Shown here: piece by piece, positions 702-13,094 of the stretch
How the letters are laid out: each line of letters starts with the position of its first letter
How positions within the stretch are numbered: the first letter of the stretch is position 1
Virus record (IMG/VR): IMGVR_UViG_2703718822_000001
Coordinates: 1-13,094 of that record
Length of the DNA stretch: 13,094 nucleotides
Direction: 5' to 3' (one strand)
Source: a virus
Taxonomy: Duplodnaviria > Heunggongvirae > Uroviricota > Caudoviricetes
The notes under the pieces: model-generated
The model's input: the letters and a program-made list of their open reading frames with translations, nothing else
The model's database searches: none
What the model was told of the DNA's origin: nothing
Made by a program: the position numbers and the translations under genes

Positions 702-1751
702 TTACCCGAGCACGCCAGTCGCAAAGGCGTGATCAAGAAAACGAAAAATTAACTCAATCTGAGAGCCGTACTTTTTCTCAAACTCCAGCGGGTCTGCATG
801 AAGTTCGTTGTGGTGCTCCCGGCACAACGGTAGCGTGAAAATATCGTGGGCCTTTGTCCCCATTCCCCCCTGACCATGACCAATCAGGTGATGCGGATCG
901 TCAGCAGGCTTACCACAACACGCACACGGCTGTGTCTTTACCCAGCGCGTGTATTTCTCATTTACCCAACGGCGACGTTTAGGTCGCCTCATGAAAGATT
1001 CCGGAGACTCCGGATCAACGGCAATGCTGAGCACCGCCTTTTCCTGTGGTGAGGGTTGTTGCTGGTGGACGTGAGGCAACGGCGCAAGATTTTTTGTGCG
1101 CTGATTCAGTATGCTGGTGGCGGTCTGCTCTCCCGGTACGATGTCGCTCTCACGGTATACTGAGCGGATTTTTTCCGCTGGTAATCCCAGCGAACGACGC
1201 GCTACTGCCTCAGGTAGTGCATCCACCACCTGATTGCAGACCGCCCACCAGGATAATTCGGCCAGCGATAACTCCCTCTCCTGCGTACCGCTTATTGCGT
1301 GACGGATGACGTCAATCATCCAGGCAACCAGATTCTGCTGAGCAAGTTGCGCCAGTGAATCAGATGTCTGGTCGCGCAGCTGGTTGTCGCAGTGCCAGCA
1401 CAACACCATCGCGCCGGAACCGTAACGATGTATGACAGTTTCGCTGTGATGATAATCGCCATGTGACCACTGGCAGGATTTCACGTGACGTAATAACCAG
1501 TCAGACAGTGCACCAGCACCACCTACTGCACGAATTACCCGCTCATCGCTGAAAAATGGCAGTAATGATTTATCCTCAGCCAGCGGCTGGCGAACGGCAG
1601 GAACGACTCCGGACGACAGACCGCGCATGCTTTTCGGTTCCGGCTCCACCAGCACCCTGCAGCAATGAAAAACCGGCAGTGATTCGCGACCAGGTTTAAG
1701 GACCACCAGGCCAAGTTCCGGTACCAGAACAGGTCTAAGTAATATCCGCAC
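702..1751 (-). CDS. ydfU: YdfU-like prophage protein (DUF968 type) with C-terminal HNH-like Cys/His motif
   Basis: 349-aa ORF, GTG start with GGAGG RBS 5 nt upstream. C-terminal CACCGKPADDPHHLIGHG...LCREHHNELH looks like an HNH/zinc-finger nuclease motif; N-terminal half has a CWHCDNQ / HGDYHH cluster. Same length as K-12 Qin YdfU as I recall it, and adjacent to Q as in Qin. Confidence 0.55.
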   Translation of the reverse strand: MRILLRPVLVPELGLVVLKPGRESLPVFHCCRVLVEPEPKSMRGLSSGVVPAVRQPLAEDKSLLPFFSDERVIRAVGGAGALSDWLLRHVKSCQWSHGDYHHSETVIHRYGSGAMVLCWHCDNQLRDQTSDSLAQLAQQNLVAWMIDVIRHAISGTQERELSLAELSWWAVCNQVVDALPEAVARRSLGLPAEKIRSVYRESDIVPGEQTATSILNQRTKNLAPLPHVHQQQPSPQEKAVLSIAVDPESPESFMRRPKRRRWVNEKYTRWVKTQPCACCGKPADDPHHLIGHGQGGMGTKAHDIFTLPLCREHHNELHADPLEFEKKYGSQIELIFRFLDHAFATGVLG

Positions 1752-2733: not shown

Positions 2734-2817
2734 TTATCCCCAGCGGCAAATCGAATACACCACCAGCGCCACCGCCATCGCAATTCCTACCGTTGTGAAT
2801 GCTTCAGGCCAGGTCAT
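2734..2817 (-). CDS. candidate 27-aa single-TM micropeptide, translationally coupled to the DUF551 gene
   Basis: ATG at 2815-2817 overlaps the DUF551 TGA stop (ATGA). Translation MTWPEAFTTVGIAMAVALVVYSICRWG, then stop. Below the ORF-track size cutoff; hand-translated. Confidence 0.3.
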   Translation of the reverse strand: MTWPEAFTTVGIAMAVALVVYSICRWG

Positions 2818-7036: not shown

Positions 7037-7462
7037 TTAGTGCATCACCACAGCATTCCCTGCCGGGCCGCCGCGATTTATCTGGTCATACAAAACGACC
7101 GCTGACGCAACAAAATCGTCGACATCCTTCACCAGCCGATCCCGCCGTTCGACAATCTCCCGGTAGTACTCAGAACTGTGACTGCGCATACGGGCCACCA
7201 GCAAAGGCGGCATCGCCTTTTCGATCGCCGGTAACAGAGCCTGAATTTTTTCAACAGCATCAGGGGTGTCTTTATCCAGCCAACGGAAAATTTTCTGGGT
7301 ATTACGAGCCAGGGCCTCAGGATGAGTGTCGTCGTACAGTTCCGGGAACGTCATCCCCAGTTCGAAATAAGTCCGGGCTATTTCAGCTGCGGGAACTTTC
7401 TCACCGTCAGGATATGCCCAGGCATTCATCGCCATGCGGATGTGCTCATGCTTGATTTTCAT
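7037..7462 (-). CDS. ydaT: YdaT-family protein (proposed CII-like regulator in Rac-type immunity regions)
   Basis: 141 aa, starts MKIKHEHI and ends ...VVMH, matching my recollection of Rac YdaT (about 140 aa). ATG overlaps the Cro-like stop (ATGA at 7459-7462). Third gene position as in racR-ydaS-ydaT. Confidence 0.55.
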   Translation of the reverse strand: MKIKHEHIRMAMNAWAYPDGEKVPAAEIARTYFELGMTFPELYDDTHPEALARNTQKIFRWLDKDTPDAVEKIQALLPAIEKAMPPLLVARMRSHSSEYYREIVERRDRLVKDVDDFVASAVVLYDQINRGGPAGNAVVMH

Positions 7463-7792: not shown

Positions 7793-8212
7793 ATGGTTCA
7801 TGAAGATAAAGCGCGTAAAGAGTTCGCCAGTAGGCTTGCGCTAGCCTGTGAAAACGCTGGTTATGAACAACATGGAAGGCAGGCAGAAATTGCCCGTCGA
7901 ATGAAATTAACACCAAAAGCGGTTAGCAAATGGTTTAATGGCGAAACAATTCCTCGCCGAGAGAAATTAAGGGAATTAGCAACACTCATTGGAACAACAC
8001 CAACCTATCTTTTGGGAGAGGATACAGAAGAAAGTGGACAGGTACGTTTCTATCAGGAGTTAAATCCAAGACAAAAAATCATCATTGATCTTCTGGACGA
8101 GCTCCCTGACAGTGAGACAGATGAACTTTTAAAAACTCTTGAGGAGAAAAAACAAAAGTACAATGCAATTTACGAAGAGTTAGCACGAAAGAAAAAACAA
8201 AAAGCCTCTTAA
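7793..8212 (+). CDS. dicA: DicA-like (RacR-like) XRE-family HTH immunity repressor without a peptidase S24 domain
   Basis: 139 aa. HTH region GRQAEIARRMKLTPKAVSKWFNGETIPRREKLRELATLIGTTPTYLLGED. C-terminal LNPRQKIIIDLLDELPDSETDELL... resembles the DicA C-terminus as I recall it. Divergent from the Cro-like gene and followed by ydfA/B/C-dicF-dicB as in Qin. Symbol is by synteny plus resemblance. Confidence 0.7.
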   Translation: MVHEDKARKEFASRLALACENAGYEQHGRQAEIARRMKLTPKAVSKWFNGETIPRREKLRELATLIGTTPTYLLGEDTEESGQVRFYQELNPRQKIIIDLLDELPDSETDELLKTLEEKKQKYNAIYEELARKKKQKAS

Positions 8213-9926: not shown

Positions 9927-9984
9927 TTCTGGTGACATTTGGCGGTATCAGTTTTACTCCGTGACTGCTCTGCCGCCCTTTTTT
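9927..9984 (+). ncRNA. dicF: DicF small RNA (ftsZ-targeting) with intrinsic terminator-like 3' end
   Basis: ttctggtgacatttggcggtatcagttttactccgtgactgctctgccgccc followed by a run of six T (9979-9984). This matches the E. coli DicF sequence as I recall it (UUUCUGGUGACGUUUGGCGGUAUCAGUUUUACUCCGUGACUGCUCUGCCGCCC) apart from about two substitutions near the 5' end. Lies 170 bp upstream of dicB as in Qin. Confidence 0.85.
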
Positions 9985-9987
9985 AAA

Positions 9988-10139
9988 AGTGAATTTTGTG
10001 ATGCGGTGAATGCGGCTCAGCGCACGCGGAACAGTTAAAACCAAAAACAGTGTTATGGGTGGATTCTCTGTATCCGGCGTTAATTGTTAACTGGTTAACG
10101 TCACCTGGAGGCACCAGGCACCGCATCACAAAATTCATT
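9988..10139. repeat. long inverted repeat (18-bp perfect core, about 21 bp extended) bracketing 110 bp between dicF and dicB
   Basis: 9991-10008 GAATTTTGTGATGCGGTG is the exact reverse complement of 10119-10136 CACCGCATCACAAAATTC; pairing extends to 9988/10139 with one G-T. The loop contains GTTAAC-TG-GTTAAC (10087-10100) and CCTGG-aggca-CCAGG (10104-10118). Confidence 0.5.
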
Positions 10140-10154
10140 GTTGAGGACGCGATA

Positions 10155-10343
10155 ATGGAAAAGTTATCATGTAATGCCAGCACGTCTGAACTTCGTTTCG
10201 AAATTGGCGTTATCACTGGAGACAAAACATTTATTGAAGACGCCATTAAGCAGAGAAAACTCGAGCAGGACCTGTTAAATGAAGTATGCATTCCTTCAAT
10301 GCTGGCTCGTCTGGACCTGCTGCAAAAAGGATATAAACAATGA
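10155..10343 (+). CDS. dicB: DicB cell-division inhibitor (MinC-dependent FtsZ antagonist)
   Basis: 62 aa: MEKLSCNASTSELRFEIGVITGDKTFIEDAIKQRKLEQDLLNEVCIPSMLARLDLLQKGYKQ. Closely parallels E. coli DicB as I recall it (same length; FEIGV...TEDAI..RK...LLN..CI.SMLARL). GAGGA RBS. Stop overlaps the ydfD-like ATG (ATGA). Confidence 0.85.
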   Translation: MEKLSCNASTSELRFEIGVITGDKTFIEDAIKQRKLEQDLLNEVCIPSMLARLDLLQKGYKQ

Positions 10344-10531
10344 ATACAACATTTGCACTCGTTCTGACAGTTTATCTTGTTTCCGGCGAATCTCTTGAGC
10401 TGGTGACTGGCTTATACGGTTCAATGAAAGAATGCATGGCTGCAGCAGCAGAACAAAAAATTCCCGGTAACTGTTATCCGGTAGATAAAACTACTCACAC
10501 TAATAATAACGAAATACCGGCAGGACTTTAA
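10340..10531 (+). CDS. ydfD: YdfD-like small protein with N-terminal hydrophobic segment (reported lysis-type protein in Qin)
   Basis: 63 aa, equal to the K-12 YdfD length, directly after dicB. N-terminal TFALVLTVYLVSG hydrophobic helix. Confidence 0.55.
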   Translation: MNTTFALVLTVYLVSGESLELVTGLYGSMKECMAAAAEQKIPGNCYPVDKTTHTNNNEIPAGL

Positions 10532-10624: not shown

Positions 10625-13094
10625 ATGAGTAAAGTCTTTATTTGCGCCGCCATTCCGGACGAACAGGCAATAAAAGAAGAGGGCGCAGTTGCTGTAGCCA
10701 CTGCCATTGAAGCCGGTGATGAACGCCGCGCCCGTGCCAAATTTACCTGGCAATTCCTGGAGCAATATCCTGCTGCTCAGGACTGCGCTTATAAATTTCT
10801 TGTCTGCGAAGATAAACCCGGCATGCCCCGCCCTGCTATCGACTCCTGGGATACCGAATATATGCAGGAAAACCGCTGGGATGAGGAATCCGCTTCCTTT
10901 ATTCCGGTCGAACCAGAATCCGATCCTATTAACGTCAATTTTGACAAGCTGTCCCTTGAAGTACAGAACGCGGCCCTAGTTAAGTTCGGTACATGTGAAA
11001 ACATCACCGTTGATATGGCGATTGACGCGCAGGAATTACTGCAAGAAGACGTGGCTACCTTTGACGGGCATATCGTTGAAGCACTGATGAAAACGCCTGA
11101 AATTAACGCTATGTATCCGGAACGCAAACTGTTCGCTATCGGATGGGTTAAACACAAATGTAAGCCGGGTACCAAATGGCCCGAAATTCAGGCTGAATTA
11201 CGTAACTGGAAAAAACGGCAGGACGCAGAGCGCAAAGAGACTGGAAAATACACGTCTGTTGTTGATCTTGCCCGCGCCAAAGCCAACCGACAGCACACTG
11301 AAAACCCAGCAGAAAAAATCCCTCCTGTAACTGCCGCCATTCATCGCGAATACAAGCAGACATGGAAAACCCTGGACAGGGAGCTGGCCTACTATCTCTG
11401 GCCTGGTGATGCGGATGCCGGAAACATTGACGGCAGCATCCTTCGCTGGGCTAAAAATGAAATTATCGCCAGAGATCGCGAAGACTGGAAGCGCATCTCC
11501 GCATCAATGCGCAAACAACCTGATGCGCTTCGCTACAGCCGCCAGACTATTTTTGGCCTTGTCCGTGAACGCCCGATCGACATTCACAAAGATCCCGTGG
11601 CACTGAACAAATACATCACTGAATACCTGACTACAAAGGGCGTGTTTGAAGATGACGAAGGAACAAATCAGGGCACAGCTAATACTCTCTCGTCGCCAGT
11701 ACCAGAAACTGACGCAGTGGAAACGGCAATTCAGGACAACGAAAAAACCGAATGCAAAGTGGAAGTCGAATCATCTGTAGAGCGTGAGGGGCCGTTCTAC
11801 TTCCTCTTCACCGACAAGGATGGCGAAAAATACGGTCGCGCAAACAAACTTTCTGGTCTGGATAAGGCACTGGCTGCCGGGGCTACTGAAATCACGAAAG
11901 AAGAATATTTCGCCCGCAAAAACAGTACATACTCAGGTTCACAACAAAATACTGGTGCATCTGACACGACCGCACAACCAGAGCCGGTAAAAGTTACCGC
12001 TGACGAAGTAAACAAAATTATGCAGGCAGCCAATATCAGCCAGCCTGACGCCGATAAGTTGCTTGCTGCCTCTCGCGGAGAATTTGTTGCAGGGATTAGC
12101 GACCCGAATGATCCGAAATGGGTTAAGGGGATCCAGACCCGCGATTCTGTAAACCAGAACCAGCATGAATCGGAACGGAACTACCAAAAAGCGGAACAAA
12201 ACAGCCCAAATGCGTTACAAAACGAGCCAGAAACGAAACAGCCTGAACCAGTGGCGCAACAGGAAGTGGAAAAAGTCTGCACCGCCTGCGGTCAGACCGA
12301 CGGCGGCAACTGCCCTGATTGTGGCGCGGTGATGGGCGACGCAACATACCAGGAAACATTCGATGAAGAGTATCAGGTTGAAGTTCAGGAAGATGATCCG
12401 GAGAAAATGGAAGGCGCTGAACATCCACACAAGGAGAACACTGGCGGCAATCAGCATCACGATAGCGATAATGAAACTGGCGAGACGGCAGATCACTCAA
12501 TTAAGGTGAACAGTCATCAAGAAATCACATCCACCAGCAGGACGTGTGACCATCTAATGATCGACCTTGAAACCATGGGAAAAAATCCTGATGCCCCGAT
12601 CATCTCAATAGGTGCAATATTTTTCGATCCGCAAACCGGAGATATGGGACCGGAATTTAGTAAGACTATCGATCTGGAAACTGCTGGCGGAGTCATTGAT
12701 CGGGACACCATTAAATGGTGGCTTAAGCAATCACGCGAAGCGCAATCTGCCATTATGACCGATGAAATCCCGTTAGATGATGCACTGTTACAATTGCGGG
12801 AATTTATCGACGAAAACTCCGGTGAATTTTTTGTTCAGGTCTGGGGAAATGGAGCCAACTTCGACAACACGATTTTGCGCCGTTCATACGAACGGCAGGG
12901 GATCCCCTGCCCGTGGCGTTACTACAACGATCGCGATGTACGCACAATCGTTGAGCTGGGGAAAGCCATAGACTTCGATGCCAGAACGGCTATTCCATTC
13001 GAAGGTGAGCGCCATAATGCACTTGATGACGCCCGTTACCAGGCAAAATACGTTTCAGTTATCTGGCAAAAACTGATCCCGAGTCAGGCTGATT
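10625..13094 (+). CDS. large early-left-operon protein (at least 823 aa, 3' end beyond window) with C4 zinc ribbon and DEDDh 3'-5' exonuclease domain; YdfE/RecE-position protein
   Basis: I hand-checked codon by codon: ATG at 10625 (GAGGT RBS 9 nt upstream) and no in-frame stop through 13093. Absent from the ORF track only because it runs off the window. Zinc ribbon CTACGQTDGGNCPDCG at about 12283-12330. Exonuclease motifs: Exo I MIDLETMG (about 12557-12580), Exo II GNGANFDNTIL, Exo III HNALDDARYQAKY (His codon 13013-13015). Confidence 0.8.
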   Translation, partial: MSKVFICAAIPDEQAIKEEGAVAVATAIEAGDERRARAKFTWQFLEQYPAAQDCAYKFLVCEDKPGMPRPAIDSWDTEYMQENRWDEESASFIPVEPESDPINVNFDKLSLEVQNAALVKFGTCENITVDMAIDAQELLQEDVATFDGHIVEALMKTPEINAMYPERKLFAIGWVKHKCKPGTKWPEIQAELRNWKKRQDAERKETGKYTSVVDLARAKANRQHTENPAEKIPPVTAAIHREYKQTWKTLDRELAYYLWPGDADAGNIDGSILRWAKNEIIARDREDWKRISASMRKQPDALRYSRQTIFGLVRERPIDIHKDPVALNKYITEYLTTKGVFEDDEGTNQGTANTLSSPVPETDAVETAIQDNEKTECKVEVESSVEREGPFYFLFTDKDGEKYGRANKLSGLDKALAAGATEITKEEYFARKNSTYSGSQQNTGASDTTAQPEPVKVTADEVNKIMQAANISQPDADKLLAASRGEFVAGISDPNDPKWVKGIQTRDSVNQNQHESERNYQKAEQNSPNALQNEPETKQPEPVAQQEVEKVCTACGQTDGGNCPDCGAVMGDATYQETFDEEYQVEVQEDDPEKMEGAEHPHKENTGGNQHHDSDNETGETADHSIKVNSHQEITSTSRTCDHLMIDLETMGKNPDAPIISIGAIFFDPQTGDMGPEFSKTIDLETAGGVIDRDTIKWWLKQSREAQSAIMTDEIPLDDALLQLREFIDENSGEFFVQVWGNGANFDNTILRRSYERQGIPCPWRYYNDRDVRTIVELGKAIDFDARTAIPFEGERHNALDDARYQAKYVSVIWQKLIPSQAD

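Follow-up and report, generated by a model that had tools for sequence, protein, structure and literature searches.

A predicted DEDDh 3'-5' exonuclease domain on a RecE-type body, encoded by an intact ydfE orthologue of a Qin/Rac-type lambdoid prophage

RecE of the Rac prophage is a 5'-3' exonuclease that acts on double-stranded DNA through a C-terminal PD-(D/E)XK head, and its gene is followed by recT; a 2023 review describes the N-terminal region of RecE as having no known function. Exonucleases of the Pfam family PF16473 (Rv2179c-like) have been studied in other settings. T4 DexA (exonuclease A), itself a member of PF16473, is a standalone protein of 227 amino acid residues from a virulent phage; its structure has been solved in a study that also reports digestion of T4 DNA and protection of cells by EcD, the homologue from Escherichia coli (E. 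coli) (PMC12153337, NAR (Nucleic Acids Research), 2025). Rv2179c, from which the family takes its name, is a 3'-5' exoribonuclease of Mycobacterium tuberculosis. In lambdoid phages, DnaQ-type nucleases have been described in early-left operons near int, and some of their genes are counted as members of recombination modules (PMC12315714, Genome Research, 2025). Here we describe a gene that occupies positions 10625 to 13093 of the Caudoviricetes record IMGVR_UViG_2703718822_000001 (IMG/VR), analysed over a stretch of 13,094 nucleotides (hereafter the window), and whose product joins a RecE-type body to a C-terminal domain that is almost certainly a DEDDh exonuclease of the PF16473 family.

The gene is a single open reading frame (ORF) of 823 codons on the plus strand, running from an ATG at 10625, with a GAGG about 11 nt before it, to the last full codon, which ends at 13093. 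Its full-length homologues are 823 residues long (2472 nt including the stop codon) and 94-97% identical to the window protein; on this basis the protein is complete, with a stop codon whose first base, 13094, is also the final base of the window. PHROG 2082, named "exonuclease," matched the protein from end to end. We rejected the possibility of a decaying pseudogene, as the ORF is unbroken and has its full length, and the active-site residues are conserved. The gene and the features of its C-terminal domain are as follows.

10625..13093, plus strand: exonuclease gene, complete ORF of 823 codons, ydfE orthologue (PHROG 2082, homologue lengths)
12551..13066, plus strand: predicted DEDDh (DnaQ-like) 3'-5' exonuclease domain, PF16473, amino acids 643-814 (Pfam, AlphaFold2, Foldseek)
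12557..12580, plus strand: Exo I, MIDLETMG, from amino acid 645, with D647 and E649 (conservation, alignment with DexA D7 and E9)
12845..12877, plus strand: Exo II, GNGANFDNTIL, from amino acid 741, with D747 (conservation, alignment with DexA D119)
13007..13039, plus strand: Exo III, ERHNALDDARY, from amino acid 795, with H797 and D802 in the H-x4-D signature (conservation, alignment with DexA H186 and D191)

A first-pass annotation of the window, made from the letters and the ORF translations, had proposed a DEDDh 3'-5' exonuclease domain with the motifs Exo I to Exo III in the proper order, and profile searches, structure prediction, and residue conservation all bore this out. The hidden Markov model search that it suggested gave a strong match to PF16473 (E = 2.3e-67, 226.5 bits against a cut-off of 27), covering amino acids 643-814 and positions 2-177 of the 177 in the profile, and a weak match to the generic RNase_T model of Pfam. 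When amino acids 626-823 were searched against 1.84 billion cluster representatives, 12,140 clusters were found at E ≤ 1e-3. Diverse relatives were drawn from a library of 50%-identity clusters, and residues were counted in the 130 cluster representatives that cover the whole DEDDh domain: D647 and H797 were kept in 130 of 130, and E649, D747, and D802 in 128 of 130 each. The closest homologues gave the same picture; in the 120 nearest (P0001-P0120; the full-length search was dominated by E. coli sequences with 93-95% identity to the window protein), Exo I was present in 120, Exo II in 118, and Exo III in 119. An AlphaFold2 model of the domain, built on an alignment of 72 diverse sequences, reached a mean predicted local distance difference test (pLDDT) score of 92.3 and a predicted template modeling (pTM) score of 0.87. 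Its best match in a Foldseek search of the Protein Data Bank (PDB) was T4 DexA (8KEN and 8KEL; E = 1.7e-11, template modeling (TM) score 0.73), followed by RNase T and oligoribonuclease/REXO2, all at a probability of 1.00. The first-pass annotation had named two findings that would speak against the domain, failure of the searches to support a DEDD fold and loss of the catalytic residues in homologues; the searches supported the fold, and the residues were retained.

DexA was the closest characterized relative in both sequence and structure. It was the sole match when the single protein sequence was searched against solved proteins, and it was by far the best when the family profile was compared with the PDB (4.5e-22, across the full domain). 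The two domains share the Pfam family, the fold, and five catalytic residues, with D647, E649, D747, H797, and D802 corresponding to DexA D7, E9, D119, H186, and D191. By contrast, DexA (8KEL, 8KEN) is a separate polypeptide about 28% identical in sequence and carrying extra loops, whereas the window domain is the C-terminus of a protein of 823 residues. DexA W152 and D169 have been reported as readers of 5-hydroxymethylcytosine (5hmC; PMC12153337). The former aligns with Y767, in a column that holds W in 34 and Y in 14 of the 72 family sequences, and the latter with D783 in a gapped loop. Rv2179c belongs to the same Pfam family but is more distant than DexA: it gave no match to the family profile in the PDB at E ≤ 1e-3 and was absent from the top 50 fold matches. 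For this reason, the label "exoribonuclease" carried by some database entries is no evidence of an RNA substrate. It is likely that the window protein is an active 3'-5' exonuclease, and DNA would be a likelier substrate than RNA, because DexA is the closest characterized relative and some family members are found in modules with a Sak4-like annealase and SSB. The PF16473-type domain occurs in 1610 phage records, of temperate as well as virulent phages.

The part of the protein that precedes this domain includes a segment related to RecE. Amino acids 475-622, a segment of 148 residues, are 73% identical to amino acids 471-611 of the RecE of phage Rac-SA53, a protein with an N-terminal PF06630 domain and a C-terminal PD-(D/E)XK (DUF3799) domain, whose gene is followed by recT. 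The NCBIfam equivalog model for RecE, NF007259, scored 288 bits, far below its cut-off of 1269, and aligned to amino acids 445-626 only (model positions 437-602). The similarity to RecE stops at about amino acid 622, some 20 residues short of the DEDDh domain, which we take as the approximate point at which the nuclease head was swapped. In Pfam searches, the window protein matched neither PF12684 nor another PDDEXK family, nor PF06630. The protein is thus a mosaic, in which a DEDDh head replaces the PD-(D/E)XK head on a RecE-type noncatalytic body. The two proteins are alike in operon position, in the module of amino acids 475-622 with its four cysteines, and in a conserved helical module; they differ in the head, which in RecE is a 5'-3' exonuclease and in the window protein is of the DEDDh type, for which 3'-5' polarity is expected, and in the first 240 residues, which in the window protein are unlike RecE. 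The features of the body are listed below.

10625..11392, plus strand: YdfE-type N-terminal region, amino acids 1-256 (phrog_5943 match, alignment with K-12 ydfE)
11354..11653, plus strand: conserved helical module, amino acids 244-343 (BLASTP to long forms, alignment, AlphaFold2 pLDDT 60-88)
11783..11932, plus strand: small predicted beta-hairpin/helix module, amino acids 387-436 (AlphaFold2 pLDDT 81-84, charge profile)
12047..12490, plus strand: RecE-shared module, amino acids 475-622, including the Cys4 motif (73% identity to Rac-SA53 RecE)
12278..12325, plus strand: Cys4 motif CTACGQTDGGNCPDCG, amino acids 552-567, C552-x2-C555-x7-C563-x2-C566, putative zinc ribbon

The Cys4 motif had been noticed in the first-pass annotation as a ribbon of the form C-x2-C-x9-C-x2-C about 75 residues upstream of Exo I. 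The motif is present and conserved, and the distance, measured at 78 residues, agrees, but the central spacing is x7 rather than x9; moreover, the start given for the whole feature, 12283, is out of frame, 5 nt into the first Cys codon, the motif itself starting at 12278. The protein has 12 cysteines, of which four fall within 15 residues to form the motif, and the pattern arose by chance in 44 of 100,000 residue shuffles of the window protein. All four cysteines are conserved in 120 of the 120 close homologues and are also found in Rac-SA53 RecE. No curated family recognized the motif above its cut-off (the nearest, NF049953, gave E = 0.04, below the cut-off), and the AlphaFold2 confidence there was low, at about 49. 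We rejected the assignment of the ribbon to the exonuclease module: it goes together with the segment shared with RecE, and the long-form relatives in more distant clusters lack it. The stretch RGEFVxGISDPNDPKW (amino acids 484-499, 12074-12121), lying in the same shared module within a region otherwise of low confidence, was nearly invariant among 12 aligned long forms, including those that lack the Cys4 motif, and may act as a short motif to which a partner protein docks.

Nearer the N-terminus, amino acids 1-256 had no Pfam match and differ from the PF06630 domain with which RecE begins. The AlphaFold2 model showed a helical folded segment at amino acids 101-203 in this region and low confidence over amino acids 1-100. 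When 17 long forms were compared by BLASTP, the module of amino acids 244-343 recurred in 11. The module of amino acids 387-436 is bordered on both sides by acidic sequence with pLDDT below 50, and these acidic segments are probably disordered. The model of amino acids 1-640, built on 13 aligned sequences, was poor overall (pLDDT 52), and it suggests a body made of three small folded pieces (amino acids 101-203, 244-343, and 387-436) that would be separated by acidic stretches of low confidence. In the precomputed Pfam annotation of the 120 closest homologues, PF27430 and PF27432 are listed beside PF16473, and each of the two families probably corresponds to some part of the N-terminal body.

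Bodies of this kind carry either a PD-(D/E)XK or a DEDDh head, as relatives show. Seven long proteins from different 50%-identity clusters join PF06630 to PF16473 (e.g., P0126, P0127, and P0131). One protein of 805 residues, P0122, combines the PF06630 domain of RecE and the same ribbon with a DEDDh C-terminus, and it also holds the equivalent of the module at amino acids 244-343. Its gene lies in a Rac-like prophage (with KilR, YdaE, SieB, and YdaT) and is followed directly by an excisionase-like DUF4224 gene and then int, with no recT at the locus. Finally, phrog_2489 and phrog_26058 join the N-terminal 380 residues of the query to other C-termini. In the literature that we examined, we did not find it stated that nuclease heads are interchangeable on RecE-type bodies or that the DEDDh form occurs without recT, and a literature search returned no study of the YdfE protein or of a RecE-type body fused to a DEDDh domain.

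The gene is the intact orthologue of ydfE (b1577), a pseudogene of the Qin prophage in E. coli K-12, because the K-12 sequence aligns at 84% identity over amino acids 1-256 and the gene order upstream is the same (dicA, ydfABC, DicF, dicB, ydfD). In K-12, an IS2 element cuts ydfE after codon 256 and the exonuclease domain is gone, whereas the window copy is intact. Other intact orthologues, 90-97% identical at the DNA level, include TRITO_27 of phage Tritos, a CP-933P gene labeled "exodeoxyribonuclease," and ECO26_1771. Full-length copies (at least 80% coverage) were found in 3511 of 5426 complete E. coli genomes, about 65%, often several to a genome, and the gene is also carried by the plaque-forming phages Tritos and mEp460. 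The Prokaryotic Genome Annotation Pipeline (PGAP) names its products "exonuclease," "3'-5' exonuclease," or "3'-5' exoribonuclease domain-containing protein." The protein family is therefore abundant and already annotated, and its phage prototype has already been classified in the literature. In view of this distribution, the PGAP names, and the DnaQ-type nucleases near int described in PMC12315714, the first-pass remark that a 3'-5' module at this position is unexpected was an overstatement. The position itself had been recognized correctly as a recombination slot: the gene stands where Rac-type prophages carry recE, and it encodes the 148-residue module shared with RecE while lacking the PD-(D/E)XK head.

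Within the window, the exonuclease gene is the last large gene in the early-left operon of a Qin/Rac-type lambdoid prophage. On the plus strand, it is preceded in order by a repressor gene of the HTH_3 (helix-turn-helix) family, small ORFs, DicF, dicB, and a ydfD-like gene.

7793..8212, plus strand: gene for an HTH repressor of the DicA/CI type, first in the rightward early-left-type operon (Pfam HTH_3, PGAP annotation of related loci)
9927..9978, plus strand: DicF small RNA, same operon (Rfam RF00039, 77 bits against a gathering score of 48)
10050..10343, plus strand: dicB, with the DicB domain in the last 62 codons of the ORF (Pfam PF05358)
10340..10531, plus strand: ydfD-like DUF1482 gene, directly upstream of the exonuclease gene (Pfam PF07358)

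On the minus strand, Pfam recognized DUF968, DUF551, DUF1627, a DnaC/IstB-like loader, an HTH_36 replication protein, YdaT, and a Cro-like HTH protein. The DUF968 (YdfU-like) protein, encoded at 702-1751 (minus strand), also showed a subthreshold match to the HNH family PF16784 (E = 7e-5, 23 bits against 26.6). In the window, every plus-strand ORF between the repressor gene and the exonuclease gene encodes fewer than 100 amino acids, and the operon holds neither an annealase gene nor one for a RecBCD inhibitor. A weak scan for promoters and terminators gave counts equal to chance and no promoter-like site directly upstream of the exonuclease gene. The window stops at the stop codon; xis and int are the next genes in the nearest genomes and phages with annotation, and no recT follows the exonuclease gene at the loci of close relatives.

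We then scanned loci with the DEDDh-domain alignment, taking one genome per species (353 relatives, 80 loci kept). Ten of the 80 loci encode long forms of 641-828 residues, in Escherichia, Klebsiella, Kluyvera, Phytobacter, Enterobacter, and related genomes. All ten have a repressor gene, small ORFs, the exonuclease gene, and int, with xis intervening in eight, and in none does a gene of recT size follow the exonuclease gene. The standalone relatives are about 180-200 residues long and often occupy the same slot just upstream of xis/int. Such standalone PF16473 exonucleases, among them the "DnaQ-type" nucleases of PMC12315714 and EcD of PMC12153337, are 40-60% identical to the window protein in the domain but have no RecE-type body, and their neighbors (Sak4/SSB, dNMP phosphatase, RdgC, and DUF2303) are absent at the window locus. 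Next to the standalone genes we found a deoxynucleoside monophosphate (dNMP) phosphatase of the HD-domain type (phrog_318) at 17 of 68 loci, DUF2303 at 15, RdgC at 8, SSB at 8 plus 4, and a Sak4-like annealase at 4; four standalone relatives adjoin both a Sak4-like annealase and an SSB gene. In prophages of other Enterobacterales, standalone PF16473 genes often share an operon with dNMP phosphatase, DUF2303, RdgC, and SSB genes, and this gene set is recurrent (e.g., loci L011, L021, L029, and L048). One scanned locus (L006, JAGZPX010000007.1), from a metagenome bin labeled Veillonella parvula, held an Escherichia-type copy of the domain (98% identical) and is most likely a binning contaminant, not a Veillonella prophage.

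The window is rich in Chi. The sequence GCTGGTGG occurs 6 times against 0.41 expected, a number reached in none of 200 shuffles, at the following positions.

1061-1068, plus strand: Chi, within the DUF968 gene at 702-1751 (minus strand)
1113-1120, plus strand: Chi, within the same DUF968 gene
1646-1653, minus strand: Chi
2760-2767, minus strand: Chi
7195-7202, minus strand: Chi
12531-12538, minus strand: Chi, inside the exonuclease gene and just ahead of the DEDDh domain

Phage Tritos contains 11 copies of GCTGGTGG against 1.49 expected. The annotation of its complete genome, in which the orthologous gene is 90% identical, lists neither an annealase nor Gam, and Table 1 of PMC12315714 gives Tritos as the prototype of a nuclease class that lacks an annealase, SSB, or anti-RecBCD gene and in which Chi is abundant. 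The Chi enrichment of the window fits this Chi-rich class of lambdoid phages without an anti-RecBCD gene.

Taking these observations together, we favor the following explanation, to whose full chain we assign a probability of about 0.4. The protein would be made only upon derepression of the early-left operon, that is, during lytic growth. Its RecE-type body would direct the nuclease to its target, either DNA ends or a partner protein, and the DEDDh head, with two-metal catalysis, would degrade DNA from 3' ends in the 3'-to-5' direction. Single-stranded 3' tails would be trimmed until the ends are blunt or near-blunt and open to entry by host RecBCD, and the trimmed ends would feed a RecBCD-Chi-RecA route to concatemers; unlike RecE and lambda Exo, the enzyme would produce no 3' tails for annealing. 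RecBCD requires blunt or nearly blunt ends, and host 3' exonucleases help to supply them. We propose end trimming for RecBCD because the phages concerned are Chi-rich and have neither an annealase nor a Gam-type inhibitor; the end-trimming role itself is put forward tentatively, with the odds somewhat against it.

Several points weigh against this explanation. E. coli already owns ExoI and ExoX for the trimming of 3' tails, so that it is not evident why a phage would need its own. The body has no recognizable DNA-binding fold, and the model of amino acids 1-640 had no structural match in the PDB fold search (best E = 0.35). Cotranscription with dicB is deduced from gene order and the missing promoter-like site alone, and most standalone relatives adjoin genes outside recombination, such as those for dNMP phosphatase and DUF2303. 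According to PMC12315714, DnaQ-like 3'-5' nucleases usually inhibit homologous recombination, and sporadic DnaQ genes near int are left out of the recombination modules defined there. Two recent papers (PMC12153337 and the preprint PMC13344964) assign defense roles to bacterial or prophage DEDDh exonucleases. We ourselves grade the RecBCD-feeding interpretation as weak.

A role in defense is the main rival of end trimming, although we regard it as unlikely. The protein would then be a prophage nuclease for defense or superinfection exclusion, directed at the cytosine-modified DNA of T-even phages ("HREX") or at the 3' ends of RNA-phage genomes. PMC12153337 found bacterial DexA homologues to be commonest in Escherichia and reports that EcD digests T4 DNA and is protective to cells, and in PMC13344964, ISG20-like DEDDh exonucleases with auxiliary domains, termed "TONDO" and in some cases borne by prophages, block the RNA phages MS2 and Qbeta. 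The proximity of the gene to xis/int in related loci and its presence in about 65% of E. coli genomes, many of the copies lying in degraded prophages, are in keeping with such a role; however, the gene ends a repressor-controlled lytic operon, no promoter-like site precedes it directly, and the K-12 copy is a pseudogene. The counterpart of DexA W152 is aromatic (Y767) and D783 aligns with D169, but the Trp itself is not conserved, and D169 is aligned within a loop. EcD, which starts with MIDTET (known from a primer sequence), is a standalone protein with no RecE-type fusion, and PADLOC (2023) assigned the window protein to no defense-system family, returning a weak generic DEDDh match alone. 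The broader claim, that the protein is a widespread prophage defense nuclease of the DexA/EcD type present in some two thirds of E. coli genomes, seems to us improbable.

The remaining explanations appeared less probable still. If the protein were an anti-defense factor, it would remove, in the lytic phase, a host immune nucleic acid with a free 3' end, such as retron msDNA, linear signaling oligonucleotides, or guide RNAs. The site in an early lytic operon beside the host-takeover genes dicB and DicF would suit this, the missing annealase partner suggests a task outside classical recombination, and DEDDh enzymes such as oligoribonuclease, which is among the structural matches, degrade short linear oligonucleotides; nevertheless, we found no direct evidence, the nearest characterized relative works on DNA, and we give this explanation little credence. 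Because DEDD enzymes require a free 3'-OH end, which cyclic second messengers do not have, the degradation of cyclic signaling nucleotides, raised as an example in the first-pass annotation, is unlikely. Scavenging of the T4 kind, in which fragments of host DNA are reduced to mononucleotides for phage DNA synthesis, would agree with the Pfam family and fold shared with DexA, which has a scavenging role, and with the dNMP phosphatase gene near 17 of the 68 standalone relatives. That neighbor, however, is absent at the window locus and at all ten long-form loci, scavenging would leave the RecE-type body unexplained, and breakdown of the host chromosome is not known from temperate lambdoid phages; we consider this explanation very improbable. 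The records LR597641.1, OV696610.1, PV340562.1, and ON470612.1, among others, name the protein "exodeoxyribonuclease VIII" or "exonuclease VIII, ds DNA exonuclease," as would befit a genuine RecE with 5'-3' activity on double-stranded DNA. The partial match to NF007259 would agree with these names, but it is confined to the segment around the shared module and falls far below the equivalog cut-off; in addition, both the PD-(D/E)XK/DUF3799 domain and PF06630 are lacking, the C-terminus has a DEDDh fold, and the related loci have no recT after the gene. The domain content refutes a genuine RecE identity, to which we attach practically no weight, and the RecE-type names are misleading, as they imply a 5'-3' chemistry at odds with that content. 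The PGAP term "exoribonuclease," for its part, derives from the Pfam family name alone, and the nearest characterized relative is a DNA enzyme.

The practical value of these observations is modest. It is conceivable, though we think it unlikely, that the RecE-type body is a general delivery platform for heads of opposite polarity and that the DEDDh version represents an annealase-free strategy in which ends are readied for RecBCD and Chi; if true, this would explain the Chi-rich phages that have neither an annealase nor an anti-RecBCD gene. The occurrence of one RecE-type body with two unrelated nuclease heads offers a handle on the N-terminal 560-600 residues of RecE, for which no function is known.

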